In this document: positions 1,766-26,059 of the stretch, piece after piece
Numbering within the stretch: the first letter of the stretch is position 1
Layout of the letters: every line of letters begins with the position of its first letter
Assembly (NCBI GenBank): GCA_951812955.1
Contig: OX638340.1
Span: 224,001 to 288,000, forward strand
From: an uncultured Gemmatimonadota bacterium
Lineage (GTDB): Bacteria > JAAXHH01
Direction: 5' to 3'
Length of the DNA stretch: 64,000 bases
Program-made: the position numbers and the translations under genes
The notes under the pieces: generated by a model
What the model saw: only the letters and a program-made list of their open reading frames with translations
The model's database searches: none
What the model was told of the DNA's origin: nothing

Positions 1766-2584
1766 ATGCTGAACAACCGTCGCATCATGATACTTGGAAC
1801 TGGAAACATGGGATCCTGCCTGCTCGGCGGCATACGCAGAGCAAATCTCGTTCCCCCGGAACAAATCGTGATTACCGGTCTGCGGTCCGATTACCTCAAG
1901 GACCTGGCGGAGCAATGGGATGTTAGCTGGACAACGGACAACCGCAAAGCGGTGCGTGAAGCGGATATCGTCATGATCTGCCTCAAGCCCCAGGCCATAG
2001 AACGCGTGGTGGATCAAGTACGCGACTGTCTCCGTCCCGATCAGCTGCTGATTACGATCGCGGCGGGAATGACGACGACCTCGATTACGGAAATGGCACG
2101 CACCGAGAATCCTGTCGTCCGGGTGATGCCGAATATCGCCTCCCTGGTGGACGAGGGGGCTGCGGCTATTTCGCCGGGCACGTACGCCGGCGAAGAACAT
2201 AAACAGATTGCAGCCCGGATCTTCCAGGCGGTAGGGCGCGTCGTTTTCGTGAACGAGCATCTTCTGGACGCGGTAACCGGTCTCAGCGGCAGCGGCCCCG
2301 CCTATATATATATGGTAATAGAGGCATTGTCAGACGGCGGTGTGAAAATGGGCCTGCCCCGAGATGTCGCCCTGGACCTCGCGGCCCAGACCGTACTTGG
2401 CGCCGCGCGGCTTATTCAGGAGACCGGCAAGCATCCCGCGGTGTTGCGCGACCAGGTACTTACGCCGGGCGGCACCACCATCGCAGCGGTACATGACCTG
2501 GAAATCCGCGGATTGCGAAGCATGTTGATCAGCGCGGTCGAGACCGCCACGCGGCGATCAAGAGAACTCCGAGACGGCAATTAG
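1766..2584 (+). CDS. proC: pyrroline-5-carboxylate reductase
   Basis: N-terminal NADP Rossmann motif (IMILGTGNMGSCLLGG). The C-terminal dimerisation domain shows conserved ...GLSGSGPAYIYMVIEAL...LTPGGTTIAA, typical of P5CR. Confidence 0.85.
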   Translation: MLNNRRIMILGTGNMGSCLLGGIRRANLVPPEQIVITGLRSDYLKDLAEQWDVSWTTDNRKAVREADIVMICLKPQAIERVVDQVRDCLRPDQLLITIAAGMTTTSITEMARTENPVVRVMPNIASLVDEGAAAISPGTYAGEEHKQIAARIFQAVGRVVFVNEHLLDAVTGLSGSGPAYIYMVIEALSDGGVKMGLPRDVALDLAAQTVLGAARLIQETGKHPAVLRDQVLTPGGTTIAAVHDLEIRGLRSMLISAVETATRRSRELRDGN

Positions 2585-2908
2585 ACTCTCCCCGGGTCTT
2601 TTGAGAAACAGGGCCGGATGCTGCCGGCAGGCCGGCGCGCCCTGAAATGAATCGTCCGGATTCGGCAAGACCCCATCGCATTTTAATCCACACAGGCTGA
2701 CAAAAAGGATTTCACGTTCGGGAGGAATCCTCCCGGGGGCGTCTTTGCGCGTGAACGGCGCCATATAGTGCCTGAACCGACGGTATTTCGTAGTATATGG
2801 TGTCAACACCTGATGTGTATCAACACACATATAGTCTTTTGCGCACGTAGGAGTTACGAAGATTCCCTTATCCAAAGGTAAAGAAAATCGATGTAAGTCC
2901 ATTTTTTA

Positions 2909-2937
2909 TTGACAATATGGGGGGTGCTATGTAGTAT
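2909..2937 (+). promoter_or_regulatory. sigma70-type promoter TTGACA-17nt-TAGTAT upstream of mraZ
   Basis: Perfect -35 hexamer (2909-2914), a 17-nt spacer and a TAGTAT -10 (2932-2937). It sits ~125 nt upstream of the mraZ ATG, in the position of Pmra in other bacteria. Confidence 0.6.
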
Positions 2938-2963
2938 AGTGGGTAGAAGTGGGACGAAGTGGG
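2938..2963 (+). promoter_or_regulatory. three direct repeats AGTGGG phased at 10 bp (2938-2943, 2948-2953, 2958-2963): putative MraZ operator
   Basis: The sequence agtgggtagaagtgggacgaagtggg lies immediately after the -10 element. This matches the known architecture of MraZ-binding GTGGG direct repeats with 10-bp periodicity overlapping the mra promoter and transcription start. Confidence 0.55.
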
Positions 2964-3060
2964 TCCCAGAACATCCTGATTACCAAACACTTGTATAGTA
3001 ATCGTAAATAACTACCTCAGGACAGGGTGTTTACTCCTTTGTGTTACAGGGAGATCGTGA

Positions 3061-3501
3061 ATGGTTAACTTCCTGGGTTCATACACCTACACCGTGGACC
3101 ACAAAGGCCGGGTCAATGTCCCTGTGAAGTTTCGCAAGCACATCCGGACCGACGAGGACGACACGCTGATCATCACGCGGGGACTCGATGGATGTCTTTT
3201 CGTCTATCCAATCGACGAATGGGAACAGATCGACACCCGATTGCGAGAACTGCCCGTCACAAGGCAGAACACGCGGATCTTCATCAGGATGCTCTCGTCG
3301 GAGGCCGTGGCAGTCTCCATGGACAAGCAGGGTCGTATCGCCCTTCCCAGGCAGCTGATCGAACGCGCCGGCATTGAAACGGAAGTACTGATCATCGGAA
3401 CGCTTGACCACTTTGAACTCTGGAGTCCCGGGGAGTATGAGAAAGTAATGAACGAATCGGGACATACATACGAAGAGATCGCGGAGTCCCTGTTCGTTTG
3501 A
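3061..3501 (+). CDS. mraZ: transcriptional regulator MraZ
   Basis: Two tandem MraZ/SpoVT-AbrB-like halves, each with the DxxxR signature (TVDHKGRVNVP; SMDKQGRIALP). First gene of the dcw cluster. Confidence 0.9.
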   Translation: MVNFLGSYTYTVDHKGRVNVPVKFRKHIRTDEDDTLIITRGLDGCLFVYPIDEWEQIDTRLRELPVTRQNTRIFIRMLSSEAVAVSMDKQGRIALPRQLIERAGIETEVLIIGTLDHFELWSPGEYEKVMNESGHTYEEIAESLFV

Positions 3502-4511
3502 TGCTTTCCACCCATGCGGCTCCGTTAAATCACGGAATGATCATGGGTCTGGCAGACAAGTACAATCATGTTCCCGTTCTTGCGGGGAAGGTAGCCGAGA
3601 TGCTCGTCTGGAACACTTCCGGCACATATGTAGACGGTACAATCGGCGGAGGCGGTCACGCGCGCGCCATACTGGAGCGGCTTGGCGAATCCGGACGGTT
3701 GATCGGGCTGGACAGGGATTCCGAAGCGGTCGGCGCGGCAGGTGCGCGGCTTGCGCGGGGAAGTACTCCTCGCGTGGAGATCCTGCAACGGGACTATACG
3801 GAGTTGGCGTCCGTGCTGGAAGCGAAACGCATCTCCCGGGTGGACGGACTGATTCTGGACCTTGGCATTTCGTCCTACCAGGTCGATACGCCTGATCGCG
3901 GATTTTCATTCCAGTCCGACGGTCCGCTCGACATGCGCATGGACCGGGGCAAGCCGTTGACCGCGGCTCATATCGTCAACGAAAGTTCCCGGGATGAACT
4001 CGAGCGGATCATACGGGAATACGGCGAGGAACGGCAGGCGCGCGGCGTCGCGAACGCGATCGTCAGAACCCGCGACAGGGCGCCGCTGACTTCCACCGCC
4101 AGGCTGGCTGATACGATCAGGTCCGCGGTCCGCCGCAGATGGGCGGTCAAGTCCTGCGCCCGGGTGTTCCAGGCACTAAGAATCGCCGTCAACCAGGAAC
4201 TGGACAAATTGAAATTGGTTTTGGATACCATGCTTCCCCTCCTGAGCAACCGGGGTCGTTTCGGTATCATATCCTATCATTCACTGGAAGATCGACTGGT
4301 CAAGCGGACATTCGAAACCTGGGCATCGGACTGCATTTGTCCGCCCGGCTTTCCACAGTGCGTCTGCCAGCACAGGCGCGTTGCCGTGCTACATACGAAA
4401 CGGGCCGTCGTGGCCTCCCGTGAAGAAGTCGCGAAAAACCCGCGGGCGCGAAGCGCCAGGTTCCGGATGATTGAACGTTTGCCCGACGATCAACACGCAC
4501 ACTGTAATTAA
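3498..4511 (+). CDS. rsmH: 16S rRNA (cytosine1402-N4)-methyltransferase RsmH/MraW. The start is uncertain: TTG at 3498, ATG at 3501 or at 3537.
   Basis: HVPVL and GTxGGGGH motifs, then SYQVD and DMRMD motifs typical of RsmH. It overlaps the mraZ stop codon. Confidence 0.85.
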   Translation: MMLSTHAAPLNHGMIMGLADKYNHVPVLAGKVAEMLVWNTSGTYVDGTIGGGGHARAILERLGESGRLIGLDRDSEAVGAAGARLARGSTPRVEILQRDYTELASVLEAKRISRVDGLILDLGISSYQVDTPDRGFSFQSDGPLDMRMDRGKPLTAAHIVNESSRDELERIIREYGEERQARGVANAIVRTRDRAPLTSTARLADTIRSAVRRRWAVKSCARVFQALRIAVNQELDKLKLVLDTMLPLLSNRGRFGIISYHSLEDRLVKRTFETWASDCICPPGFPQCVCQHRRVAVLHTKRAVVASREEVAKNPRARSARFRMIERLPDDQHAHCN

Positions 4512-4541
4512 CATCTTTAATTCAGAACGGAGAAGCCCGTC

Positions 4542-4964
4542 ATGAAATCCGCTATCAGATTCCGCAGCGACCACTCGTACATGGGACAATTGATCGGCTG
4601 GATCGGTACGATCGCGCTCGTAACGTCGCTGAGCATGGGTTACATCTGGCACCAGGTGGAAACCACGACGCTGATGCGGGAGATCATCGAACTGAAGGAT
4701 CAGAAAGAAGCCTTGAAAAAGGAAAGCGCCTATTTGCACGTGCGGATCGTTCGGCTCGCGGAACAGCTTCGGAACGAAACAGTGGCCATGAGTCGTTTCG
4801 ATTTGGAACACGCTGCAGTCGGACAGGTTGTGAACATGGATGCGGTAGACACGGCCATGGCTTTGGCCAACACCGAGCCCGATGTAAGGGCGATTGCGGG
4901 TAAGCCGGCGGATGACGCGTTGATCCTTGCCTCGTACCCTGCGGCTCACGTGGATACCCGATGA
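4542..4964 (+). CDS. ftsL: FtsL-like cell division protein (single TM helix plus coiled coil)
   Basis: 140 aa with one N-terminal TM segment (LIGWIGTIALVTSLSMGYIW) followed by a heptad-like coiled coil (REIIELKDQKEALKKESAYLHVRIVRLAEQL). It lies between rsmH and ftsI, where ftsL normally sits. Primary-sequence similarity is weak, as is typical for FtsL. Confidence 0.55.
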   Translation: MKSAIRFRSDHSYMGQLIGWIGTIALVTSLSMGYIWHQVETTTLMREIIELKDQKEALKKESAYLHVRIVRLAEQLRNETVAMSRFDLEHAAVGQVVNMDAVDTAMALANTEPDVRAIAGKPADDALILASYPAAHVDTR

Positions 4965-4976
4965 GGGAATACCGTT

Positions 4977-7040
4977 ATGGTCGCGAAATCCTGTATGCGC
5001 AGACTGACCCTCCTGGCCGTAGTCGGAGTGGTACTGTGTGCAGGTCTCGGGATTCGTATCGCGCTAATTCAGATTCGCGACGGCGAGGCCTACAGGCAGC
5101 GGGCGCGTGACCAACAGCACCGGGTGGTCACCATCGACCCCCGCCGGGGCCGTATCTTCGACCGCAACCGTAACACGCTGGCGCTGAGTGTCGAGTTCGA
5201 CTCCTTCGGTATCCAGGATCTCGACCGGGACCGGTACGGCCCCTCCGATATCGGAAACCTGGCCGTTCAGCTTTCCCAGATCACCGGCGAAGATCCCCAG
5301 CATATCATCGACCGGGTTTCCGAGACCTCCGACTTCAGGTATTTGGTCCGCTGGGTGAATCCCGAAACCAGTGAACGGATTAGAAGCCTCTCCACCTATC
5401 CCTTGTTCGAACCCTATATACGCACGCAAAAGGAAGCCAGGCGGGTCTATCCCTATCGGACCGCGGCCGGCCAGATACTGGGTTTCAGCGTAGATGGTTC
5501 CGGTCGGGCCGGGTTCGAAATGGAACACAACCAGCTGTTATCTGGTTTAGAAGGGTACAGCGTGGTGCAGATAGACGCTCAGCGACGGGCGTATTCGTGG
5601 CTTGATGCCTACCAGAATCCGGCGGAGAACGGCGCGGACGTCGTACTGACGATCGATATCGCTGCCCAGGTTGCCGCGGAAGAGGCGCTGGAGGAGGCGA
5701 TAGCGTGGCACGGGGCGCTCGGCGGTATGGTCATCATGATGGATCCGGCGAACGGCGACATACTGGCCATGGCCAGTTCTCCGGACTTCGATCCGAATAC
5801 ACCGGGACGGTTTCCATTCGAAGCCCAGAAGATCAGGCCGGTGGTGGATATCTACGAACCTGGGTCGACTTTCAAGATCGTAGCAGCGACCGCGGCCCTG
5901 GAGACCGGTGCGTTCTCTCTTGAGGACCGGATCGATACCAGTGCAGGCCGGATCGAGGTGGGCGCGCAGACGATATCAGACCACGAGGTCTACGACGAAC
6001 TGAGCGTACGGGAAGTCATCGAGCGGTCCAGCAACGTGGGTACCGTCAAAATCGCCCTGGCCCTCGGTGAAAAGGAGTTTTTCAAATACACCCGGGCCTT
6101 CGGTTTCGGCATGAAAACGGGCGTGGCCCTCCCGGGCGAGGCAAGAGGTATCCTGCATAAACCGGCCGTTTGGTCCATGTCCACGCTTCCCGCCATGGCC
6201 ATCGGCTACGGGGTTTCCGTCACCGGAGTACAACTCGCGACCGCCTATTGCGCCGTAGCCAACGGAGGCCTGCTCCTGCGACCTCGGATAATCAGATCCA
6301 TCCTGAGAAACGACGGTTCCGTGCAGACCGAACCGCGGTTTGTCGTTCGCAGGGTGATGAAAGAGGAGACCGCCGAAGCCTTACTGGGCGTATTCGCCGG
6401 AGTGGTGGACCAGGGTACGGGCACAAAGGCCGCGGTAACGGGTTTCAAGGTCGCGGGAAAGACCGGCACAGCCTGGAAGACCCGTGAGGACGGCAGGGGA
6501 TACACCAGGAATTACCGGTCGTCGTTTGCCGGGATGTTTCCGGCGAATGACCCGGAAATCGTCGTGCTCGTCATGATCGACGAGCCGAAGAAACGCGGCT
6601 TCTATGGCGGATCCGTGGCCGCGCCGGTTTTCAACAAAATCGTTCGCCGCCTCGTCCATCTGCCGGACGGACCCGTTGAGTCGGTTCCCGAATCCGATGA
6701 CGGCCTGCCCCTTCACCTGGCCTCCATCAAGCCTGGTTCGTCCTCGGGCAGCAGACCGCAGGGTTCTGCTACGGCATCGGGAGGACCGATGACTGGAGAC
6801 TTACTGCAGCTTGGCGGCCACTGGGAAATCGAACGTCCCGGTACCGGGGCGGAACAGGCACCGGTGCCGCTTCCGTCGGTGACAGGCATGAGCGTTAGAG
6901 AAGCCGTAAGGACCCTGGCCGAACAGGGTATTGAAGCAACCATAGTCGGTAAGGGCTACGTCCGACGCCAGATTCCTTCACCGGGCCGCATGGTCTATCC
7001 CGGCGATCGATGCCTCATCGAATGTGGTCCCTACAACTAG
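4977..7040 (+). CDS. ftsI: peptidoglycan D,D-transpeptidase FtsI (class B PBP3) with a C-terminal Ser/Gly-rich linker and one PASTA domain
   Basis: N-terminal TM anchor. Transpeptidase motifs STFK (PGSTFKIV), SxN (SSNVG) and KTGT (AGKTGTA). C-terminal ...PLPSVTGMSVREAVRTLAEQGIEATIVGKGYVRRQIPSPGRMVYPGDRCLIE fits the PASTA fold. Confidence 0.85.
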   Translation: MVAKSCMRRLTLLAVVGVVLCAGLGIRIALIQIRDGEAYRQRARDQQHRVVTIDPRRGRIFDRNRNTLALSVEFDSFGIQDLDRDRYGPSDIGNLAVQLSQITGEDPQHIIDRVSETSDFRYLVRWVNPETSERIRSLSTYPLFEPYIRTQKEARRVYPYRTAAGQILGFSVDGSGRAGFEMEHNQLLSGLEGYSVVQIDAQRRAYSWLDAYQNPAENGADVVLTIDIAAQVAAEEALEEAIAWHGALGGMVIMMDPANGDILAMASSPDFDPNTPGRFPFEAQKIRPVVDIYEPGSTFKIVAATAALETGAFSLEDRIDTSAGRIEVGAQTISDHEVYDELSVREVIERSSNVGTVKIALALGEKEFFKYTRAFGFGMKTGVALPGEARGILHKPAVWSMSTLPAMAIGYGVSVTGVQLATAYCAVANGGLLLRPRIIRSILRNDGSVQTEPRFVVRRVMKEETAEALLGVFAGVVDQGTGTKAAVTGFKVAGKTGTAWKTREDGRGYTRNYRSSFAGMFPANDPEIVVLVMIDEPKKRGFYGGSVAAPVFNKIVRRLVHLPDGPVESVPESDDGLPLHLASIKPGSSSGSRPQGSATASGGPMTGDLLQLGGHWEIERPGTGAEQAPVPLPSVTGMSVREAVRTLAEQGIEATIVGKGYVRRQIPSPGRMVYPGDRCLIECGPYN

Positions 7041-7090
7041 CCGATTCATCGTTCATGAGGGTGAGGACGACGGCATAGAGGGTCAAGGCG

Positions 7091-8635
7091 TTGAAACAGC
7101 TTTCGAAATTGCTGGCCGCGTTACCTCAAAAAAAAGTCATCAGCCGGCTGAATGCCTCGAACCGGGCGGACCGGGCGGACCGGGCAGTCCAGGCGGACTA
7201 TGCGGACCATGCGGACCATGCGGACCAGGAGATTGGAACCATAGTCCATGACTCGAGGTCCGTAGAGCCAGGCGATGTTTTTGTCGCGCTCCGCGAGCCT
7301 TCGGGCCGCGACGGCCGCAGGTACGCCCGCGACGCGGTTGCACGGGGCGCTTCGGTAGTGGTACAGGAAAGCGAGGAGGGCCTGGATGACGCGATCGTGA
7401 TAAGCGTTCCGGACACTTCCAGGGCTCTGGGCTTGATGGCCGCGGCGTACTACGGTCAGCCGGCGACCGACCTTTGTCTGATCGGTATTACGGGGACCAA
7501 CGGAAAGACGACCGTGTCATTGCTGGTCGAGGCTATCCTTCGGGAATGTGGCTGGGCCGTGGGCGGGATCGGCACGCTGGGCAGCCGGTTCATGGGCAAT
7601 GTGCTCGACTGGAAACTGGGCCACACCACGCCCTATCCGATGGAGCTGCACGGCACCCTGAGGAAGATCCGGGACCGGGGAGGCGAATGCGTCGTCATGG
7701 AAGTATCCTCTCACAGCCTGGTCTGGCAACGCCTGTCCGGCCTGCGATTCACCACGGGCGTCTTTACGAATCTCTCCAGGGAACACCTGGACGACCACAA
7801 GACCTTCGACGCTTACAAGGAAGCGAAGATGGTGCTTTTCTCGAAATACCTCGAGGAGAAAGGCAACGCCGTCCTGAACATGGACGATCCGGCCTATGTC
7901 CATTTCAAGGACGCATCGCGCGCACAGGTGCGATCATACGGACTGGACAAGAAGGCTGACGTCCGCAGGGCGGGTCCAATAGGATACTATGCTGACCGGA
8001 CCGTCATGAAAGTGCAGATTCAATCCGGTCCCCCTTTCAACGTGACCTTGCCTCTCCTGGGTCGTTTCAACGCGTACAACGCCCTGGCAGCCATATCCGT
8101 GGGGCTGGGATTCGGCATCGACTGTGAACTGATGAGCCGGGCCATGTCACGAGTCAGGGTACCCGGCCGGCTTGAGCGCGTCGAGGCTGGACAGCCTTTC
8201 AACGTGCTCGTGGATTTCGCCCATACGCCCGACGCACTCGGCGCCGTACTGTCCGCCTGCCGGGAATGGACCCGTGGAAGCCTGACCGTCGTATTCGGTT
8301 GCGGCGGGGACCGTGATCCCGGCAAGCGGCCGCTGATGGCCCGTGCGGCGTCCACCCACGCCGACGTAGTCATCGTGACGACCGACAACCCGAGAACGGA
8401 ACCGCCCGACCGGATCATAAGAGATATCGAGCCGGGTCTCCTGCCCCACGTCCGGTCCCATATAGTCCAGGACCGCGGCGAAGCGATCCATAAGGCCCTC
8501 AGCGATGCCGGCGAAGGAGACACCGTGCTGATCGCCGGAAGAGGAGACACGGCCTACCAGATCGTTGGCGAATCGCAAATCGAGTTCGACGACCGGTTCA
8601 AGGCCAGGGAATGTCTCGAGGCGCACTATGGATAA
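7091..8635 (+). CDS. murE: UDP-MurNAc-L-Ala-D-Glu:meso-DAP ligase MurE. Apparent TTG start; the N-terminus carries an (X-Ala-Asp)7 tandem-repeat insertion.
   Basis: Mur ligase ATP site GITGTNGKTT, the N-terminal DSRSVEPGDVFVAL motif, and a C-terminal region consistent with a DAP-adding MurE. Confidence 0.85.
   Translation: MKQLSKLLAALPQKKVISRLNASNRADRADRAVQADYADHADHADQEIGTIVHDSRSVEPGDVFVALREPSGRDGRRYARDAVARGASVVVQESEEGLDDAIVISVPDTSRALGLMAAAYYGQPATDLCLIGITGTNGKTTVSLLVEAILRECGWAVGGIGTLGSRFMGNVLDWKLGHTTPYPMELHGTLRKIRDRGGECVVMEVSSHSLVWQRLSGLRFTTGVFTNLSREHLDDHKTFDAYKEAKMVLFSKYLEEKGNAVLNMDDPAYVHFKDASRAQVRSYGLDKKADVRRAGPIGYYADRTVMKVQIQSGPPFNVTLPLLGRFNAYNALAAISVGLGFGIDCELMSRAMSRVRVPGRLERVEAGQPFNVLVDFAHTPDALGAVLSACREWTRGSLTVVFGCGGDRDPGKRPLMARAASTHADVVIVTTDNPRTEPPDRIIRDIEPGLLPHVRSHIVQDRGEAIHKALSDAGEGDTVLIAGRGDTAYQIVGESQIEFDDRFKARECLEAHYG
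7163..7225 (+). repeat. in-frame tandem repeat of 7 degenerate 9-bp units (cgggcggac x2, cgggcagtc, caggcggac, tatgcggac, catgcggac x2) inside the murE 5' region
   Basis: Read directly from the sequence. It encodes RAD-RAD-RAV-QAD-YAD-HAD-HAD. The other reading frames of the same stretch give Pro/Gly repeats, as expected for a nucleotide-level repeat. Confidence 0.9.
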
Positions 8636-10049
8636 CCGCAATGGGTCGGCGGCGCCCACGTTGCTGGAAATAGCCGATATCATGGGCGGGAGACTGCATG
8701 TATCCATCCCCGCGCTTGGTCACAGACGGATCACGGGCGTTTGTTCCGATACGCGGCGTATCGCGGAGGGCAACCTGTTCGTCGCGATTGCAGGTGAACG
8801 GTACGACGGTCACGATTTCGTGCCTGAAGCCATGCGCTCGGGAGCGTGTGCGTCGCTGGTTGCGGCCGATTGGCTCGCGGGTCGGCCGGACCGGGAGACT
8901 CCGGATGACGCGCGGATCGTCGTGCCGGAAGTACTTCCGGCCCTGCAGGCATTCGCCGGTTGGCACCGAAGACGATTCGATCTGCCGGTAATCGCGGTTA
9001 CGGGTTCCAGCGGGAAGACCACCACGAAGAACATGATGGCCGCCGTGCTGGGAGAGCGCTACAGGGTTTTCAAAACACCGGGGAACCTGAATAGCCAGCT
9101 GGGAGTCTCCGAATCGCTGTTCTCGCTGCACGAAGGCCACGGCGCGGCGGTACTTGAACTGGGTATGAACCGGGCAGGTGAACTGACCCGGCTGTCCCGA
9201 ATGACCTGTCCATCCGTTGGCGTGATTACCAATGTGGGGCCCGCGCATATCGAGTTTTTCGAATCGATCGAAGGAATCGCCCGGGCCAAGGGCGAAATTC
9301 TCGACAATCTGCCAGGGGCGGGAAGCGCGGTGCTAAACGCCGACGACCCCCTCGTCATGAAGCAGGCCGTTCGCAGTCCGGCGCGAGTCGTTACGTTTGG
9401 ACGCAGCGAGGGAGCCGACGTAAGGCTGGCAAGCGCAACGACCGCACTGACCGGATCGACTTTCGCCTTGTCGGATGGCGCATCCTTTCGAATAAACCTG
9501 TTGGGGGAACACCAGGTCATGAATGCAATGGCCGCCGTGGCGGTGGGCAGGATTTCGGGAATCGACGACCAGGACATCGCTCGCGCGTTGCGAAACTTGG
9601 ATCCCACGCCCATGCGCATGGAATACAGGAAGGTGGGCGCCGTGCACCTGATCGACGACACATACAATGCCAATCCGTCGTCGATGAAGGCGGCCCTGGA
9701 CACGCTGGCGACTGCCGGAGGCCGTAAACTGGTCGTCCTCGGGGATATGCTGGAACTGGGCGAACTGGGCATGGCGGCGCACAGGGAAATCGGAAAACGC
9801 GCCGCGGATGTGGCGGAACGGATCGTCACGGTGGGAGAACTGGCCCGCGAAATCGCCGGAGCCGCGATGCATGCGGGGATGCCGGCGTCGCGCGTCTCGT
9901 CCTGCCTTTCCAACGACGAGGCGGTCGCTGAGGTAATGGCGGGAATCGAAGCCGTCGACGTCATACTCGTCAAGGGATCGCGCGGCATGCGGATGGAAAC
10001 GATCGTTGAATCCCTGGAACTAGCACTGGGCCATACCGAAACGGAGTGA
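8628..10049 (+). CDS. murF: UDP-MurNAc-tripeptide:D-Ala-D-Ala ligase MurF
   Basis: ATG at 8628 overlaps the murE stop within ATGGATAA. Mur ligase P-loop VTGSSGKTTTK; overall MurF-like sequence. Confidence 0.85.
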   Translation: MDNRNGSAAPTLLEIADIMGGRLHVSIPALGHRRITGVCSDTRRIAEGNLFVAIAGERYDGHDFVPEAMRSGACASLVAADWLAGRPDRETPDDARIVVPEVLPALQAFAGWHRRRFDLPVIAVTGSSGKTTTKNMMAAVLGERYRVFKTPGNLNSQLGVSESLFSLHEGHGAAVLELGMNRAGELTRLSRMTCPSVGVITNVGPAHIEFFESIEGIARAKGEILDNLPGAGSAVLNADDPLVMKQAVRSPARVVTFGRSEGADVRLASATTALTGSTFALSDGASFRINLLGEHQVMNAMAAVAVGRISGIDDQDIARALRNLDPTPMRMEYRKVGAVHLIDDTYNANPSSMKAALDTLATAGGRKLVVLGDMLELGELGMAAHREIGKRAADVAERIVTVGELAREIAGAAMHAGMPASRVSSCLSNDEAVAEVMAGIEAVDVILVKGSRGMRMETIVESLELALGHTETE

Positions 10050-10053
10050 TTCC

Positions 10054-11196
10054 GTGTTACATCAGCGAATCGATCTTCCACTGCTGGTTTCATCCCTGCT
10101 CCTCCTGGGCGTGGGATCGGTCATGATTTACAGCGCGAGTTCAGCCGTTGCCGAAGAGATGTTTTCCGGCGACAGTGGTTTCTTCGTCAAACGCTACCTG
10201 GTCAGGTTGATTCTCGGAATCGTCATCCTGGTCCTGTTCGCCAGCCTGAATTACCAGAAACTCGGGAAGTGGTCCCCATTACTGGTTGCCGTCGGCATGG
10301 TGTTTCTCGTGCTCCTCTTTGTTCCCGGTATCGGCCTGACCATCCGGGGCGCGACCCGCACCTTGAGCATGTTCTCCACGACGATTCAGCCCGCGGAAGG
10401 GATCAAGGTCGCCCTGGTCATATACCTGGCCTACTGGCTGGACAGGCGCCAGAACGTCATGGACCGTTTCTTCATCGGATTTCTGCCCGGAATAGCGGTG
10501 GTCGCGGCAGCCTGCCTGCTGATTGTCCTGCAGCCGGATTATGGTACCGCGATCGTGCTTGCCGCAACCTCGTTCGCGATGCTCTACATCGGCCGCGCGC
10601 GGATGCTGCACCTGGCAAGCACCGTGGGAATCATGTTGCCGGTCCTTTTCTACAGACTGTATTCGTCGGCTCACAGCCGGCAGCGTCTCATGGCTTATTT
10701 CGATCGGCTTTTCGGCAATTCCGTCGATCAGTCCGTCAATCTGCAAGGTGCGGACTACCAACTGCAACAAGCGCTGATCAGTCTGGGTACAGGCGGCGTA
10801 TTTGGAAACGGTCTGGGACAAAGCCGTCAGAAGTTTCTGTTCCTTCCCGATCCCCACACTGACTTCGTGTTCGCGGTGATTGGCGAAGAACTCGGTTTTC
10901 TGGGGTCGATGGCGGTGCTGGGCCTCTTTGTCGTATTCGCCTGGAGGGGTTTCAGGGTCGCCCGCATGGCACCTGACACCTTCGGGTTTTTCCTGGCGTC
11001 CGGGCTTACTATTCTTATCACACTGCACGTGCTGGTGAACATCGGTGTGGTGACGGGCATGCTCCCCACCACGGGGCTTCCGCTACCCTTCCTGAGCTAT
11101 GGCGGGTCCTGGCTGCTTTTCTGCATGATGAGCATCGGGATACTGCTGAACATTTCCAGAATGACATACCGGTGCCAGAGACTGAAATATGACTGA
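10054..11196 (+). CDS. ftsW: SEDS-family peptidoglycan glycosyltransferase / lipid II flippase FtsW
   Basis: Ten-TM SEDS protein with the conserved PDPHTDFVFAVIGEELGFLG loop and C-terminal LPLPFLSYGGS. It immediately follows murF, so mraY and murD are absent here. Confidence 0.85.
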   Translation: MLHQRIDLPLLVSSLLLLGVGSVMIYSASSAVAEEMFSGDSGFFVKRYLVRLILGIVILVLFASLNYQKLGKWSPLLVAVGMVFLVLLFVPGIGLTIRGATRTLSMFSTTIQPAEGIKVALVIYLAYWLDRRQNVMDRFFIGFLPGIAVVAAACLLIVLQPDYGTAIVLAATSFAMLYIGRARMLHLASTVGIMLPVLFYRLYSSAHSRQRLMAYFDRLFGNSVDQSVNLQGADYQLQQALISLGTGGVFGNGLGQSRQKFLFLPDPHTDFVFAVIGEELGFLGSMAVLGLFVVFAWRGFRVARMAPDTFGFFLASGLTILITLHVLVNIGVVTGMLPTTGLPLPFLSYGGSWLLFCMMSIGILLNISRMTYRCQRLKYD

Positions 11197-12607
11197 TCGG
11201 CAAAATACGGACATTGCATGCCGTCACGCGCATTTCATCGGCATAGGCGGAATCGGAATGAGCGGTCTGGCTGAACTGATGCTCGAATTTGGTTACGAAG
11301 TGAGCGGATCGGACCTGCGGCGAACACAGCTGACGGACCGGCTCAGCGGTCTCGGAGCGTCCGTCTTCCACAGCCACGACCCGGGCAACGCGGCGGGTGC
11401 GGACCTGATCGTGTACTCTTCCGCAATTCCGGAGGACAATCCCGAACTCGAAGCGGCCCGTAGGCATGGCGTACGTTTGGTCCGCCGCGCCGAACTGCTC
11501 GGTATACTGATGCGCGGGGCACGAAGTATCGCCGTGGCGGGCGCTCACGGCAAGACGTCCACGTCGGCGATGATCGTAAACGTACTGGCCGCCGCGGGCC
11601 TGGATCCGACCGCCGCCATAGGCGGGATCATGACGGAGAACGGATCCAACGTCCGGCACGGCAGCGGATCGTGGATGGTCGCGGAAGCCGATGAATATGA
11701 TCGTTCGTTCCATGCGCTGGCTCCGACTACGGCAGTAATCACATCGGTGGACGCAGACCACCTGGAATACTACGGATCGCAGGAAGCCATAGATGCAGCC
11801 TTCACTACTTTCGCCCATCTCGTACCCGAGGACAGGCCGTTGTTCGTGTGTGCCGACGACCCGGGCATCCGCAGGATCAGTCCCGCGCTGCGCCGACGGC
11901 TGGTGACCTACGGCCTTTCCGGTCACGCCTGCATCCGGGCAGACCGGGTGGCGACCGAAGGCTGGAGCATTTCCGCCGAAGTATTCGTGCGGGACGTTCC
12001 GGCCGGCCGGCTGGTTTTGCCTCAGCCCGGCGAGTGCAACCTGGTCAATGCCCTGGCGGCCATCAGTGTGGCCGACTACCTCGAAATACCCGTCGAGCGG
12101 ACCCTGGCGGCCCTGGCGGATTACCGGGGACTGAGGAGACGTTTCGAAGTACTCGGAAGGATTCAAGGTGTGGAGGTAGTGGACGACTATGCCCACCATC
12201 CCGTCGAAATCGAGGCGGCGTTGCTCGCCCTGTCAAACGCGGGAGCCCGGCGCATGTTCGTCATATTCCAACCCCACCTCTTCAGCCGAACGCAGCATCT
12301 GTGCCGCGAATTCGGGCGCGTACTCGGGCGGTTTCCCGCATATCGGAAGATCGTTACGGACGTGTACCCCTCCAGGGAAACGCCGCGGGAGGGGGTTACG
12401 GGTGAGTTGATCGTCAGGGCGTCGAGCGCATTCGGAGGAGGCGTCGCGTACATGCCGGACAAGAACCGCATCGCGACCACCCTGGTGGACGATCTCGAGA
12501 AAGGGGACATGGTGCTGACGCTCGGCGCGGGGGACATCGACGAAGTAGGACGGCAGGTTTGCGAACTACTTAGGAAACGCGGGGTCAGGTCCCATGCATG
12601 TATATGA
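11189..12607 (+). CDS. murC: UDP-N-acetylmuramate:L-alanine ligase MurC
   Basis: N-terminal HFIGIGGIGMSGLAE (the MurC Rossmann signature) and Mur ligase P-loop AGAHGKTSTS. It overlaps the ftsW stop within ATGACTGA, so there is no murG between ftsW and murC. Confidence 0.9.
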   Translation: MTDRQNTDIACRHAHFIGIGGIGMSGLAELMLEFGYEVSGSDLRRTQLTDRLSGLGASVFHSHDPGNAAGADLIVYSSAIPEDNPELEAARRHGVRLVRRAELLGILMRGARSIAVAGAHGKTSTSAMIVNVLAAAGLDPTAAIGGIMTENGSNVRHGSGSWMVAEADEYDRSFHALAPTTAVITSVDADHLEYYGSQEAIDAAFTTFAHLVPEDRPLFVCADDPGIRRISPALRRRLVTYGLSGHACIRADRVATEGWSISAEVFVRDVPAGRLVLPQPGECNLVNALAAISVADYLEIPVERTLAALADYRGLRRRFEVLGRIQGVEVVDDYAHHPVEIEAALLALSNAGARRMFVIFQPHLFSRTQHLCREFGRVLGRFPAYRKIVTDVYPSRETPREGVTGELIVRASSAFGGGVAYMPDKNRIATTLVDDLEKGDMVLTLGAGDIDEVGRQVCELLRKRGVRSHACI

Positions 12608-13520
12608 AATGCTCAGTGGGTCGATCGCTTCCGAACGGCTGCGGTGCGACGAGGGCCTTGATCGGCATTCTACTTACCGGGTCGGAGGGCCGGCGGACGT
12701 GATGTGCCTGCCTCGAACCCGATCGGAACTGCTGGATGTCGTCACCGCTGCAAGCGTGCGCGGGATACCCTGGCTGGTGGTGGGAAACGGGAGCAATATC
12801 CTCTTCTCGGATGACGGATTCCGCGGTCTGGTGATCAAGATAAGAGGCGCGGTCCCGGTGGAGGGGACGCTGTGGCAATTGGCGCAGGAAGGTGATTTCA
12901 TCCGGGCGGGCGCGGGCGTCAGCCTGCCTCGACTCGCCAGGTCGGCGGCGGCCGCGGGACTGAGCGGACTGGAGTTCTGCACCGGGATACCCGGCGTGGT
13001 TGGCGGATCCATCCGGGGCAACGCCGGCGCTCACGGGAGTGATCTGGGCGCTGTAGTGGAGTCTGTGGAAATGATTCGGCCATCCGGTGACATCGTGACG
13101 ATCAGGGCTTCGGAGGCCGGGTTTTCCTATCGGGAAAGTGAAATTGAGCCGGACAGCATCGTGACCGGGGCGGTGTTCAGGCTGACGCCGGATGAACCGG
13201 AGAACGTGCAAGAACGCATAAGGGTCTTCACCGAATACAGAAAGCGCACGCAGCCGTCCTCCGATCAGAGTGCCGGGTGCATGTTTAAAAACCCGGTGGG
13301 CGACAGTGCCGGAAGGCTGATCGACGCGGCCGGGTGCAAAGGACTTCAGGTCGGCGGATCGAGGGTGTCCGAAATCCACGGTAATTTCGTAATCAACCTG
13401 GGTGGTGCAACGGCGTCGGACGCGTTGCGGTTGATCGACCTGGTTCGCGAACGGGTCTTCGAGCGAACCGGCGTAGCCCTCGAACTCGAGGTGCGCGTGA
13501 TGAAATCGGGCGTGGTATGA
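12594..13520 (+). CDS. murB: UDP-N-acetylenolpyruvoylglucosamine reductase MurB
   Basis: FAD-binding PCMH-type domain (YRVGGPADVM...GNGSNILFSD) and the C-terminal MurB domain (GCMFKNP, RVSEIHGNFVIN). Confidence 0.85.
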   Translation: MHVYEMLSGSIASERLRCDEGLDRHSTYRVGGPADVMCLPRTRSELLDVVTAASVRGIPWLVVGNGSNILFSDDGFRGLVIKIRGAVPVEGTLWQLAQEGDFIRAGAGVSLPRLARSAAAAGLSGLEFCTGIPGVVGGSIRGNAGAHGSDLGAVVESVEMIRPSGDIVTIRASEAGFSYRESEIEPDSIVTGAVFRLTPDEPENVQERIRVFTEYRKRTQPSSDQSAGCMFKNPVGDSAGRLIDAAGCKGLQVGGSRVSEIHGNFVINLGGATASDALRLIDLVRERVFERTGVALELEVRVMKSGVV

Positions 13521-14359
13521 ATTCGAACAGGATGCGTTTCACATTCCGTTTGATGACCGGACTTGCGATTGTCCTGCTCGCCTCAGGTACGACGGCCGGA
13601 CTGGTCATGGGAGGCCTGGCGCTGTCCAGGTGGACTGAGAACTCGCCGGTTTTCAATCTGGACGCCATCGTCGTCGAGGGGAACAGGATCGCTGGCAAGG
13701 AGGACATCATCCGGGTTTCCGGCCTCGAAATGGGCAAGAACATCTGGTCGGCCGACCTCGAGGAGACCGGACGGCGACTCATGCTCGACACGCGGTTCGA
13801 TCGGGTCGCGCTGAGCAGGAGGTTACCCGGTACCGTCGTCGTTCGGGTGAAGGAACTGCAGCCCATCGCCATTGTACAGCTGGATCGCCTCTACGGAGTC
13901 TCCGAACGCGCCGAGCTGATCCCGCTTTCACCGGGAAACGGGTTGCCGGACCTTCCCGTGATTACCATCGACGCTTCAGGTTTCCGGCCGGAGTCAGGCG
14001 CCGCGGAATCGCGGGACCTTCATTTCGAAACGCTCAGGGAAGCCATGCTGGTCGATCCCGAGATGGGCCGCGCCCTCTACCTCATGCGGGTGCTCAGAGC
14101 GATGTCTCCGGGGATGTACGACGAGTTATCCGAGATTCACATGTCCAGACCGAATGACCCGATCGCCTACATGGTGGAAGGCGGATTGGCCATACGGTTC
14201 GGAACGGGACACTACCCCCGGAAGATCGAGATGCTCAGACGAACTGTGGAGCGGTTGGAAGCCGACGCCATCAGGACCCGGTTGATCGATCTGAGGTTCA
14301 AGGACCAGGTTATCGTCCGCCCGGTTGTATCCAGCCGGTCCCTGGACAGGCGTTCGTAG
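13517..14359 (+). CDS. ftsQ: cell division protein FtsQ (TM plus POTRA domain)
   Basis: Single TM helix then a POTRA-like segment (IVVEGNRIAGKEDIIRVSGLEMGKNIWSADLEE) and a FtsQ beta domain. It occupies the position between murB and ftsA and overlaps the murB stop (ATGA), so no ddl is present. Confidence 0.75.
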   Translation: MNSNRMRFTFRLMTGLAIVLLASGTTAGLVMGGLALSRWTENSPVFNLDAIVVEGNRIAGKEDIIRVSGLEMGKNIWSADLEETGRRLMLDTRFDRVALSRRLPGTVVVRVKELQPIAIVQLDRLYGVSERAELIPLSPGNGLPDLPVITIDASGFRPESGAAESRDLHFETLREAMLVDPEMGRALYLMRVLRAMSPGMYDELSEIHMSRPNDPIAYMVEGGLAIRFGTGHYPRKIEMLRRTVERLEADAIRTRLIDLRFKDQVIVRPVVSSRSLDRRS

Positions 14360-14377
14360 CGGTAAAAGGAGTTTCGC

Positions 14378-15598
14378 ATGGCCCGTGAATGTATAGCTGC
14401 ACTCGACCTGGGCACGACCAAAACGGTCGTGTTGATCGGCGAGATGACTGACGCCGGCCTCCGGATCCTGGGCGAGGGTACGTGCCGGTCCCAGGGCCTC
14501 CGGCGAGGCGTCCCGGTCAATATGGACGAAGCTGCCCGTTCGATCGCGGAGACGATTCAGGTCGCGGAACAGGCGGCCGAAGCCAGGATAAGCGAGGTCT
14601 ATGTCGGGTGTTCCGGCGATCACATCGAAAGTGTCAACAGCAGAGGCGTCGTGGCCATTTCGTCCGACGGGGGACGGGGCGTGACGCGTAAGGACGTTGC
14701 TCGCGCCTTCGATTCCGCGACGGCCCTGAGGATTCCCATGGACCGCCAGGTCATCCATGTGCTCGCACAGGACTATATCGTGGACGACCAGTGCGGTATC
14801 CGCGACCCGTGCGGCATGTCCGGCGTCCGGCTTGAAGTGCTGGTGCACATCGTGACCGGGGCGATCACCTCGTTGCGGAATGTACGCAATTGCATCATGC
14901 AGTCCGGAATTCAAGTCCGGGAAATCGTCCTCGATTCGCTCGCCGCGAGCCAGGCGGTGCTCACATCCGACGAAAAAGAGCTGGGTGTCGTTCTCCTCGA
15001 CCTCGGCGGGGGCACCACGAACATCGCGCTGTTCCAAGACGGCAGCATCCGGCATTCGTCGGTTATTCCCGCCGGAGGAATCAACCTTACGAACGATATC
15101 GCGATCGGTCTCCGCACCCCGCATGAAGATGCCGAACGAATAAAGCGGCACTACGCGAGCGCGGTATATGTCCGCTCGGAAAGGGACAACATGATTGAAG
15201 TACCCGGGGTCGGCGGACGCGAGTCGCGTATGGTGACGCGGGAGGAATTGGCGTTCGTGGTCGGCCCACGGATCAAGGAGCTTCTGGTCCTCGCTCGGGA
15301 GACGATCAGGAACAGTGGATTCGAACACCTGGTCCGCACCGGTATCGTTATCACAGGGGGCGGTGCGCTGATGCCGGGTATTGCGAAACTGACGGAACAG
15401 GTCTTCGGCATGTCCGCGAAAATCGGTGCGCCGGAGGAAGTTCACGGCCTGGCCGATGATGGGAACGCCCCCCTGTACGCAACCGGTGTAGGCTTGTTGC
15501 GCCACGCAGCGGACAGCTCGTCAGGAAAAAAGTGGCACCATGATACGGAAGGAGGATGGCTGGATCGTGTGAGAAGCCGGATCGTAGCCATGTTGTAG
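14378..15598 (+). CDS. ftsA: cell division protein FtsA
   Basis: Actin/Hsp70-fold motifs IAALDLGTTKTVVLIGE, DLGGGTTNIALF and VITGGGALMPGI. Lies directly upstream of ftsZ. Confidence 0.9.
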   Translation: MARECIAALDLGTTKTVVLIGEMTDAGLRILGEGTCRSQGLRRGVPVNMDEAARSIAETIQVAEQAAEARISEVYVGCSGDHIESVNSRGVVAISSDGGRGVTRKDVARAFDSATALRIPMDRQVIHVLAQDYIVDDQCGIRDPCGMSGVRLEVLVHIVTGAITSLRNVRNCIMQSGIQVREIVLDSLAASQAVLTSDEKELGVVLLDLGGGTTNIALFQDGSIRHSSVIPAGGINLTNDIAIGLRTPHEDAERIKRHYASAVYVRSERDNMIEVPGVGGRESRMVTREELAFVVGPRIKELLVLARETIRNSGFEHLVRTGIVITGGGALMPGIAKLTEQVFGMSAKIGAPEEVHGLADDGNAPLYATGVGLLRHAADSSSGKKWHHDTEGGWLDRVRSRIVAML

Positions 15599-15666
15599 CA
15601 CACACCATGCGCTATCGTACGGATTCGGCGGTTTGCTAACTCAAACCCCACAGAAGGAGGCAGGAA

Positions 15667-16839
15667 ATGTCTACTTTCGACTTTGATGCGGAACCGGGAT
15701 TGTTTGCCCGCATGAAAATAATCGGCGTAGGCGGCGCAGGAAAGAACGCCGTCAACCACATGGTTGAAATCGGCGTCCCGGGCGTTGATTTTCTAGTCGC
15801 CAACACCGACGCGCAGGACCTGGCGGGTTCCAATGTGAAGTACAAGATACAGCTGGGACAGGAAACTACCCGTGGACTCGGCGCCGGCGCTAATCCCGAC
15901 GTGGGCCGCAAAGCCGCGGAGGAAAGCCGGGACGAAATCGCGGAACACCTGACCGACATCGACATGGTGTTCATCACGGCGGGTATGGGGGGAGGCACGG
16001 GAAGCGGCGCCGCGCCGGTGATTGCCCAGATTGCGAAGGAACTGGGTGTGCTGGCCGTCGGCGTCGTGACCAAGCCGTTCGCGTTCGAGGGACCCAAGCG
16101 TGCGGCGAACGCCGAGACCGGGCTCTCAGCTTTGAAGGAACATGTAGATACGGTGGTCATCATACCAAACCAGAAACTGAAGGAGGCCGTGAGCCGCAAC
16201 ACCACATTCAAAGACGCGCTCAAGGTGGCCGACGAAGTCCTGTTGCAGGCCACGCGCGGCATTTCGGACCTGGTTACACTGCCCGGATTGATCAATGTCG
16301 ATTTCGCCGATATCAGGACGACCATGGAGAACAAGGGCGAAGCCCTGATGGGAACCGGCGAAGCCGATGGCGACAAGCGTGCGCTGGAAGCGGCGGAACG
16401 GGCCATGCGGCACCCGTTGCTGGCGGACATGGACATCGACGGGGCCAAGGATATTCTGCTCAATATATCGGGCGGCCAGGACATGACCCTGTTCGAAGTG
16501 GAAGAGGTGATGACCACGGTTCAGGCGGCCGCGGGACATACCAACATCATCATGGGTACGGTCCTCGACGAAAGCCTCGACGGCAAGGTCCGCGTAACGG
16601 TGATCGCCACGGGGCTGGACCAGTCGATGGCTGCCCCTGACGATATGTTGACGCGTAACATCCTGAAGTTTCAGCCGGACCGCCCTAACGAACTGGAAAC
16701 GCCGGCCTTTCAGCGTGTCAAGCGCAACGGGTTCGATACGGAAGAAGTGACCGTCGGCGACCCTTCTGACGACGCGGTCGACAACAACGGGCTGGACGTG
16801 CCGACCTACATGCGTCGCAGGCGGGCTTTCGGTTCGTAG
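15667..16839 (+). CDS. ftsZ: cell division GTPase FtsZ
   Basis: Tubulin signature GGGTGSG (GMGGGTGSGAAPV), N-terminal KIIGVGGAGKNAVNHM, and a conserved C-terminal tail (DVPTYMRRR). Confidence 0.95.
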   Translation: MSTFDFDAEPGLFARMKIIGVGGAGKNAVNHMVEIGVPGVDFLVANTDAQDLAGSNVKYKIQLGQETTRGLGAGANPDVGRKAAEESRDEIAEHLTDIDMVFITAGMGGGTGSGAAPVIAQIAKELGVLAVGVVTKPFAFEGPKRAANAETGLSALKEHVDTVVIIPNQKLKEAVSRNTTFKDALKVADEVLLQATRGISDLVTLPGLINVDFADIRTTMENKGEALMGTGEADGDKRALEAAERAMRHPLLADMDIDGAKDILLNISGGQDMTLFEVEEVMTTVQAAAGHTNIIMGTVLDESLDGKVRVTVIATGLDQSMAAPDDMLTRNILKFQPDRPNELETPAFQRVKRNGFDTEEVTVGDPSDDAVDNNGLDVPTYMRRRRAFGS

Positions 16840-24841: not shown

Positions 24842-26059
24842 ATGGAAATCCACTTAAACCGCACACTCGTCATCATATCCCTCCTGTTGTCCGTGATCGG
24901 CATTATCGTGATCTACAGCGCCACGCGGGACGTAACCGGTCTGGGCATGTCCCGTTTCATGCTGCAGTCCATGTGGTTCCTGACCGGTATCGGGGTCATG
25001 TACGTGACTTCGGTGTTGCCGACCCGGTTCCTTCAGGCCATTACCATCCCGGTATTCGTGCTGGTGATGGTCCTGCTGGTCATCGTTCTGACCACCGAGA
25101 CAGTCAAGGGGTCCAGCCGGTGGATCAGATTCGGCTTTATCGGCATACAGCCTTCCGAGCTGGCGAAAATCGCCGTCATCATGGCGCTCGCACTGTATCT
25201 TTCCCAGGTGCGGTCCAACATTCACCGGCCATCGGTTATAGCCACCTGCGGGTTTATCGTGGCGCTGCCCGTTTTCCTGATTCTGTCGCAGCCCGACCTG
25301 GGCACTTCCATCGTTTTTGGAGCGATCCTATGCGGCGTGCTGCTCTGGGCGGGGTTGAGCGTCCTCGAACTGATTCTCATGGTTTCTCCCCTGATCGGTG
25401 TCGTTATCGGCGTCGTGAGCGGGTTCGACTGGGTAATCTGGTCGGTATTCATTCTGAGCGTGGCCGGGATCATGTATCTGAAGCGGCCTCCCCGGTTCGT
25501 CACCATATTCCTGATCGTGGCTCATCTGGGCGTTGGCCTGGGCGCCGAACCGCTCTGGGATTCGCTGCACGACTATCAGCAGCAGCGCGTCGAAACCTTT
25601 CTGAATCCTCAGGTCGATCCCAAAGGCGCGGGTTACCAGATCATCCAATCCAAAATCGCCATCGGATCAGGCGGATTGACCGGGCGTGGGTTTCTGCAGG
25701 GATCTCAAACCCACCTTGCGTTCCTCCCCGAACAGCACACTGATTTCATCTTCTCCGTCATCGCCGAGGAATTCGGGTTCTTGGGCTCGATCGCCGTCCT
25801 CGGGCTGTACTACGTCTTCATACTCATCGGCATCAATATCGCCATGAACGTCAAGAGCCGGTACCAGGCCATGCTGGCGGCCGGTTGCGTTTCCGTTTTC
25901 ACTTTTCACGTGGTCATGAACATTGGGATGGCCGTCGGTGTGCTGCCGATCGCCGGCGTACCCCTTCCTTTTCTCAGCTACGGCGGCTCTTTTTTAATGT
26001 CCAGCCTGATACTGTGCGGCCTGTTGTTGAATGTCTGGCGTCATCGATTTGACTACTGA
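24842..26059 (+). CDS. rodA: SEDS-family peptidoglycan glycosyltransferase RodA
   Basis: PEQHTDFIFSVIAEEFGFLG loop and C-terminal VPLPFLSYGGS. Lies directly downstream of mrdA. Confidence 0.85.
   Translation: MEIHLNRTLVIISLLLSVIGIIVIYSATRDVTGLGMSRFMLQSMWFLTGIGVMYVTSVLPTRFLQAITIPVFVLVMVLLVIVLTTETVKGSSRWIRFGFIGIQPSELAKIAVIMALALYLSQVRSNIHRPSVIATCGFIVALPVFLILSQPDLGTSIVFGAILCGVLLWAGLSVLELILMVSPLIGVVIGVVSGFDWVIWSVFILSVAGIMYLKRPPRFVTIFLIVAHLGVGLGAEPLWDSLHDYQQQRVETFLNPQVDPKGAGYQIIQSKIAIGSGGLTGRGFLQGSQTHLAFLPEQHTDFIFSVIAEEFGFLGSIAVLGLYYVFILIGINIAMNVKSRYQAMLAAGCVSVFTFHVVMNIGMAVGVLPIAGVPLPFLSYGGSFLMSSLILCGLLLNVWRHRFDY

Follow-up and report, generated by a model that had tools for sequence, protein, structure and literature searches.

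A conserved mraZ promoter with a predicted three-box MraZ operator at the head of the dcw cluster of an uncultured Gemmatimonadota bacterium

Introduction

[quoted passage not shown] Here, we analyse a predicted MraZ operator of this type, composed of three AGTGGG boxes, together with the promoter, the 5' leader and the dcw cluster that surround it. The locus lies in a stretch of 64,000 nucleotides from an uncultured Gemmatimonadota bacterium (positions 224,001 to 288,000, forward strand, of contig OX638340.1, assembly GCA_951812955.1), hereafter referred to as the window, whose own numbering is used throughout. The locus had previously been described from the letters and open reading frames of the window (the sequence-only reading), and we re-examined this description by comparison with related genomes and with the characterised MraZ systems.

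Among these systems, Escherichia coli MraZ represses its own operon via repeats upstream of mraZ, and transcription starts 38 bp upstream of the gene (PMC7761207; the system of Eraso et al. 2014, cited there and in PMC12957436). Read directly from the K-12 genome (NC_000913.3), E. coli Pmra consists of TTGACA, an 18-nt spacer, TAAACT, cctttc and AGTGGGaaatTGTGGGgcaaAGTGGG, with the mraZ ATG soon after; its boxes, arranged as AGTGGG-4-TGTGGG-4-AGTGGG, start 6 nt past the -10 hexamer. In Bacillus subtilis, GTGG[A/T]G occurs three times with 4 nt in between; these boxes form the sole triple repeat of this kind in the genome, and repression requires the boxes as well as both DXXXR motifs of MraZ (bioRxiv 10.1101/2022.02.09.479790). 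In Burkholderia cenocepacia, the promoter PmraBc carries four 7-nt repeats with 3-nt spacers, located downstream of the -10 hexamer and overlapping the start, which was mapped 100 bp upstream of mraZ; MraZ shifts the promoter-proximal fragment (PMC7761207).

In Mycoplasma genitalium, cryo-electron microscopy showed that four adjacent MraZ subunits use K13, R15 and R86 to read four AAAGTG(T/G) boxes with a 10-bp period (PMC12957436). Transcription starts within box 1, and the boxes are needed for repression, which rises stepwise with their number (PMC12957436). The sequence-only reading had stated that a dodecameric MraZ binds GTGGG repeats with a 10-bp period in E. coli and other bacteria. The repeats and their period are indeed shared, but the dodecamer is a proposal for E. 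coli only; the Mycoplasma protein is an octamer or nonamer ring, which opens so that four subunits can read four boxes (PMC12957436). Finally, Rhodobacter sphaeroides provides an example of an extended dcw 5' leader, with the small RNA (sRNA) UpsM (PMC5089854).

Promoter and operator

The promoter-operator stretch, as read, is ...cattttttaTTGACAatatggggggtgctatgTAGTATAGTGGGtagaAGTGGGacgaAGTGGGtccc..., on the strand of mraZ and in intergenic DNA at the head of the dcw cluster. A promoter scan located the -35 hexamer TTGACA at 2909-2914 and the -10 hexamer TAGTAT at 2932-2937, separated by a 17-nt spacer (2915-2931). Three direct AGTGGG boxes follow at 2938-2943, 2948-2953 and 2958-2963, with a period of exactly 10 bp; box 1 directly adjoins the -10 hexamer and lies about 122-123 nt 5' of the mraZ ATG. 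This is the layout that the sequence-only reading had proposed, with exact coordinates. In the scan, TTGACA-17-TAGTAT scores 10/12, and the spacer is within the 16-18 nt of a sigma-70-type housekeeping promoter. The description of TAGTAT as a near-consensus -10 was generous: the critical A2 and T6 are present, but only 4/6 positions agree with TATAAT. Judging from the geometry of the -10, transcription would start at 2943-2946, 6-9 nt past this hexamer and inside or next to box 1. Relative to this predicted start, the boxes cover about -7 to +19.

The three-box array is unique in the window. Allowing two mismatches, AGTGGG-N4-AGTGGG-N4-AGTGGG has one match in the 64 kb, and none of 100 dinucleotide shuffles contained any. 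The looser pattern GTGG-N6-GTGG-N6-GTGG, with one mismatch allowed, also matches a single site, which is the predicted operator, and the coordinates of all GTGGG words reveal no further pair 10 bp apart on one strand of the window. We take a MraZ operator to consist of at least three direct repeats with a GTG(G/T) core, set one to a helical turn (boxes of 6-7 nt, spacers of 3-4 nt), and the array has these features. As a separate observation, GTGGG is scarcer in the window than expected: the two strands together contain 110 copies, whereas dinucleotide shuffles have 188 +/- 13, and all 100 of them exceed the observed number. This depletion may reflect either a k-mer bias or the avoidance of stray MraZ boxes.

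The promoter spacer holds a run of six Gs (2919-2924) that the clade has conserved. Runs resembling GTGGGGG are likewise present between the -35 and -10 hexamers of the mraZ promoters of four distant loci described below (L037, L045, L059 and L073). The spacer G-run could be an additional contact for MraZ, yet it is not consistently in phase with the boxes. When an extra in-phase box was sought in the spacer of the window, the G-run provided GGGGG at -20 bp, and the TGGG nearest to box 1 is 12 bp away in the relative L023 and 32 bp away in L073.

Directly 5' of the -35 hexamer lies an A/T-rich, UP-element-like region, GGTAAAGAAAA ... TTTTTT (2877-2908). Its first part, GGTAAAGAAAA (2877-2887), is retained down to relatives with 63% MraZ identity. 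Likewise, the clade relatives and the 63-68% relatives L023 and L107-L110 retain both GGTAAAGAAAAnCG..GTAA and the run of Ts. That 2877-2908 acts as an UP element is only inferred.

Conservation of the promoter and boxes

Scanning one genome per species yielded 23 close relatives with MraZ identities of 63-100%, upstream DNA being available for 22 of them. All are metagenome-assembled genomes (MAGs) labelled Latescibacterota, Gemmatimonadetes/Gemmatimonadota or 'bacterium'; the same scan also returned two distant loci, from Anaerospora and from a Solibacteraceae MAG. Further relatives with 66-68% MraZ identity (L107-L110) were found via a protein database. A 62% relative, L111, was left out of the box comparison, its contig ending within the leader.

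The alignment of related mraZ upstream regions, which had been suggested as a check, shows that the whole arrangement is preserved. In 22/22 relatives with upstream DNA, an invariant TTGACA is followed by a 17-nt spacer (its length in L021 and L017 being read by eye), a -10-like hexamer and then at once by three (N)GTGGG boxes spaced by 10 bp. The only box deviation is AATGGG in box 2 of L006. The -10 hexamer is more variable: TAGTAT occurs in 15 sequences, TAGAAT in four, and TACCAT, TACTAT, TATTAT and TTTCAT in one each. Even L023, with 63% MraZ identity, keeps the full layout though the rest of its intergenic sequence is largely unalignable. In L107-L110, the same TTGACA and 17-nt spacer precede TAATTT or TACTTT, one base and three GTGGG boxes.

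Across 19 close-clade genomes, 14/15 box-core positions (93%) and 6/6 positions of the -35 hexamer are invariant, compared with 18% of the inter-box positions and 5% of 42 four-fold degenerate mraZ sites in the same genomes. Indeed, the inter-box sequence drifts freely, and upstream of about 2760 the alignment of relatives dissolves entirely. This pattern of substitutions indicates strong purifying selection on the box cores, in contrast to the drifting spacers.

A comparable organization is observed far outside the clade. A metagenome scan with a MraZ alignment gave 80 distant loci with 35-44% identity, 75 of them with at least 150 nt of upstream sequence. Within 250 nt upstream of mraZ, on the sense strand, 61/75 loci contain at least 11/12 matches to GTGG-N6-GTGG-N6-GTGG, and in 30 of them the match is perfect. 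On the antisense strand, these regions never exceed 9/12, and among equally long downstream coding controls only 1/70 reaches 10. The profile of 43 non-redundant distant operators, AAAGTGG(T/G)(G)(G/A), includes an A-rich 5' flank (A at 0.81/0.72/0.84) that was not part of the selection criterion, and the three units of the window, ATAGTGGGTA, GAAGTGGGAC and GAAGTGGGTC, agree with this profile. A good promoter could be recognised in 40 distant loci. In 14 of these, box 1 adjoins the -10 hexamer or overlaps it (gap -2 to +1), as in the window; the other placement of box 1 starts 12-21 nt past the -10. The start codon follows box 1 at a median distance of 50 nt (27-176 nt); the 122 nt of the window are long but not unique.

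MraZ and the dcw cluster

The open reading frame (ORF) at 3061-3501, on the forward strand, encodes a MraZ of 146 aa. It matches PF02381 at 1.4e-31 (Pfam) and TIGR00242, 'division/cell wall cluster transcriptional repressor MraZ', with 136 bits against a cutoff of 98 (NCBIfam). Both of its DXXXR motifs, D13-R17 and D88-R92, are invariant in the MraZ alignment, E. coli MraZ included. The protein aligns with the M. genitalium MraZ structures (PDB 9QLR, 9SX6 and 9QLG) at E = 1e-20, and its K15, R17 and R92 correspond to the base-contacting K13, R15 and R86 of the latter.

The remaining cluster extends from 3498 to 16839 on the same strand and contains rsmH, a small ORF at the ftsL position, ftsI, murE, murF, ftsW, murC, murB, ftsQ, ftsA and ftsZ; valS is the gene that follows. 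With these family matches and this content from rsmH to ftsZ, the earlier assignment of the region as a dcw cluster stands, and mraZ is its first gene. The 140-aa ORF at the ftsL position (4542-4964) has no match in Pfam or NCBIfam. Searching with the E. coli proteins (tblastn) found no mraY, murD, murG or ddl in the 64-kb window, the sole exception being a weak murD cross-hit on murF. It was also observed that murF directly adjoins ftsW, followed by murC and murB, and that a second gene of the FtsW/RodA family is located at about 25100-25999. Upstream of mraZ, proC ends at 2584, leaving an intergenic gap of 476 nt, in the last 300 nt of which the G+C content falls to about 40% compared with about 60% nearby.

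Regulation by MraZ

Collectively, the conserved boxes, their E. coli-like sequence and period, the retention of K15, R17 and R92 and the position of mraZ at the head of the dcw cluster agree with the earlier suggestion that this architecture supports MraZ-mediated regulation. We propose, with a probability of roughly 85%, that mraZ and the dcw genes are under negative autoregulation via a predicted MraZ operator placed over the promoter and start. In this model, TTGACA-17-TAGTAT would direct RNA polymerase to initiate at about 2943-2946. MraZ, presumably an oligomeric ring of double SpoVT/AbrB-like domains, would bind one GTGG(G) box per subunit, each in the next major groove along the same helix face, with one box per 10 bp. 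Since the boxes run from the -10 edge to about +19, bound MraZ would cover the edge of the -10 hexamer together with the start and the region transcribed first, and should thereby block open-complex formation or promoter escape. As a result, mraZ and the downstream dcw genes would be negatively autoregulated. This geometry is of the repressor type, and negative autoregulation is therefore the best-supported reading; we infer from sequence the binding itself, that regulation is repressive, and where exactly transcription starts.

Several points weigh against this reading. First, MraZ was reported as an activator in Mycoplasma gallisepticum, as cited in PMC12957436 and PMC7761207, and repression can therefore not be taken for granted. 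Second, a promoter match of 10/12 is not rare by itself, the window containing six sites of at least 10/12 on both strands compared with 2.1 +/- 1.5 in composition-preserving block shuffles; the promoter call must therefore rest on position and context and on conservation. Third, the -10 hexamer found at this place in the relative L017 is poor (TTTCAT). Lastly, since several other conserved blocks surround the promoter, regulation is probably not exerted by MraZ alone.

The G-rich repeats could alternatively, though this appears very improbable, constitute a G-quadruplex element, formed in the non-template strand or at the 5' end of the mRNA, instead of or alongside a protein operator. A G-quadruplex has been proposed for the Staphylococcus aureus mraZ promoter (PMC11796246), and four G-tracts are in fact present here, the G6 run at 2919-2924 and GGG at 2941, 2951 and 2961. 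These tracts do not, however, form a canonical motif of four G3+ tracts with 1-7-nt loops, since three are connected by 7-nt loops and the fourth is 16 nt off. The G4Hunter score is 1.14 over 2917-2965 (49 nt), with a maximum of 1.44 per 25-nt window, below the threshold of 1.5. Moreover, the conservation includes the GT before GG and the A-rich 5' flank, neither of which a G-quadruplex needs, and many distant operators read GTGGT or GTGGA, with two Gs only.

We consider it equally doubtful, to the point of being highly unlikely, that MraZ binds the boxes but activates transcription, for example from a second promoter with TATAGT at 2994-2999 as its -10, which would centre the boxes at about -45, -55 and -65. 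Besides the activation reported for M. gallisepticum, the location of TATAGT at 2994 inside an invariant block of the leader favours such a promoter. On the other hand, the sequence 16-18 nt 5' of 2994 offers no -35-like hexamer (ACATCC), the promoter scan finds no site at 2994, and relatives that keep the rest of the block do not retain the hexamer (ACGAGT in L110, CATATT in L107); the second promoter was rejected on these three grounds. In addition, a covarying helix arm at 2970-2980, described below, implies that this DNA is transcribed from upstream, and the overlap of the boxes with the -10 and start of a strong consensus promoter corresponds to the repressor geometry of E. coli and B. 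cenocepacia. That the repeats merely resemble MraZ boxes, being the operator of another regulator or a slippage-made tandem repeat without any regulatory role, is still harder to believe, as the motif co-occurs with mraZ across phyla and on the sense strand only, its cores are under strong purifying selection with drifting spacers, and the local MraZ retains the box-reading residues.

The mraZ leader

The sequence-only reading had placed the start ~100 nt upstream of mraZ and noted a long leader. The predicted leader is indeed long, but its length is ~116 nt (2945-3060, forward strand) and not ~100 nt, as the -10 hexamer ends 123 nt before the ATG. The corresponding distance is 122-125 nt in 21 clade relatives.

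Within this leader, a 19-nt block, CCAAACACTTGTATAGTAA (2983-3001, forward strand), is as conserved as the boxes, with 12 consecutive invariant positions in the 21 clade leaders. It is unique in the window and always found 18-21 nt past box 3, down to about 63% MraZ identity. Its core CCAAACACTT is retained in L114 (84% identity), L110 (66%) and L023 (63%), and takes the form TCAAATACTT in L107-L109. Among 106 loci, no others contain the exact core AAACACTTGTA. Read as its reverse complement, AAGTGTTTGG, the block looks similar to a Mycoplasma-type MraZ box in inverted orientation. A leader peptide across the block was considered and discarded: translation by eye showed neither a start nor a Shine-Dalgarno sequence to be conserved, L010 does not share the stop, and in L023 a stop follows after four codons.

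In the close clade, the block is enclosed in the loop of a predicted helix (helix 1), formed by a 5' arm at 2970-2980 and a 3' arm at 3021-3031, both on the forward strand. This helix is paired in 89.6% of the alignment cells, compared with 35-55% when the same helix is slid by 1-3 columns. For instance, the pair 2976:3025 is CG in 11, UA in 7 and UG in 3 sequences. These covarying changes may represent one to three events among close relatives, and the helix appears clade-specific, not being evident in the minimum free energy folds of L107, L110 and L023. Since the helix with its 5' arm at 2970-2980 covaries, it indirectly supports a transcription start upstream of 2970, as the sequence-only reading had it.

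Closer to the gene, a second predicted hairpin pairs CUCCUU (3034-3039) with AGGGAG (3048-3053) and would sequester the Shine-Dalgarno sequence GGGAG at 3049-3053. It is paired in 96.8% of cells in the 21 sequences, but its changes are one-sided (U-G/U-A) only, so that covariation leaves it unproven. RNAalifold also proposed a pairing of the transcribed boxes (AAGUGGG) with the block (CC..CACUU); all the columns involved are invariant and speak neither for nor against it. The fold of the whole leader is no more stable than that of shuffled sequences (z = -0.19), and it is therefore only a modest covariation that argues for structure. None of the Rfam 15 covariance models matched 2500-3200 on either strand at E <= 1.

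These elements could point to functions of two sorts: the block could act in the RNA, as a new cis-regulatory element for the translation of mraZ/dcw, or, alternatively, be a downstream operator. That the long leader, with its block, covarying helix and Shine-Dalgarno hairpin, forms a second, undescribed regulatory layer, in which the block is a new regulatory element, is a tentative idea that we regard as rather unlikely.

Long leaders were also noticed at two of the distant loci, L037 (about 1035-1200) and L073 (about 705-877), whose mraZ leaders of 167-176 nt contain a long, nearly perfect hairpin (AGGTTGTGGGTTCC...GGAACCCACAACCT) with a conserved G/A-rich interior and have no Rfam match. 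Structured mraZ leaders may have arisen more than once. At another distant locus, L081, the mraZ promoter is directly preceded by an RNase P RNA (1-255; Rfam RF00010, 88 bits), which is truncated by the contig end.

Conserved blocks upstream of the promoter

Strongly conserved blocks also occupy 2790-2905, 5' of the -35 hexamer. They include a direct repeat, GTGTCAAC / GTGTATCAAC, flanked by TATATG...CATATA. The conserved CCTTATCCAAAGG includes TTATCCAAA (2868-2876), which is an 8/9 match to the DnaA box consensus TTATCCACA. A weak promoter-like site is found on the minus strand at 2819-2792.

The hexamer TATAGT occurs four times on the forward strand within 240 nt, at 2764, 2830, 2935 and 2994, out of nine copies in the whole window on both strands, and each of these four lies within a clade-conserved block. 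A copy about 115-150 nt 5' of the -35 hexamer is also seen in L107-L110 (66-68%). These copies could be extra -10 elements or the motif of some factor.

Discussion

The locus is an ordinary conserved dcw promoter with a predicted MraZ operator, an arrangement previously described in E. coli, Bacillus, Burkholderia and Mycoplasma. With it, the autoregulatory architecture of MraZ and Pmra is found in a further, uncultured lineage, whose nearest genomes are labelled as Latescibacterota or Gemmatimonadetes MAGs. With a box sequence essentially identical to that of E. coli, it adds one more data point for a nearly universal MraZ code, in which one GTGG box per helical turn is placed on or just past the -10 hexamer. 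The understanding of MraZ itself is unchanged, and only the conserved leader block could teach something new. In practical terms, the operator helps annotation by fixing where the dcw operon begins and provides a defined DNA fragment for the MraZ of a lineage that cannot be cultivated.

One of the closest counterparts is E. coli Pmra: among the CHARACTERISED operators compared, its hexamer, spacers and strand are those of the window. Both promoters have TTGACA and, downstream of the -10 on the mraZ strand, three (A/T)GTGGG hexamers with 4-nt spacers. Unlike in E. coli, where the boxes begin 6 nt past the -10 hexamer and the leader is short, the boxes of the window abut the -10 and are followed by the ~116-nt leader with its extra conserved elements. 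The three boxes with 4-nt spacers are also shared with B. subtilis, as is the uniqueness of the triple repeat, in the genome there and in the 64 kb here; the fifth base of the box is G in the window (GTGGG) and A or T in B. subtilis. With B. cenocepacia, the window shares repeats that lie past the -10 and overlap the start, here a predicted one, as well as a similarly long leader, although the repeats number four in B. cenocepacia and three in the window. As regards the leader, R. sphaeroides likewise has an unusually long one before its dcw cluster; in the window leader, neither a terminator nor an sRNA-like unit was found, and it has no Rfam match. Finally, the operator of M. genitalium has four AAAGTG(T/G) boxes compared with three AGTGGG boxes in the window, but the two systems have in common the direct repeats with a 10-bp period, the lysine and two arginines at the box-reading positions, and a start, predicted in our case, in or next to box 1.

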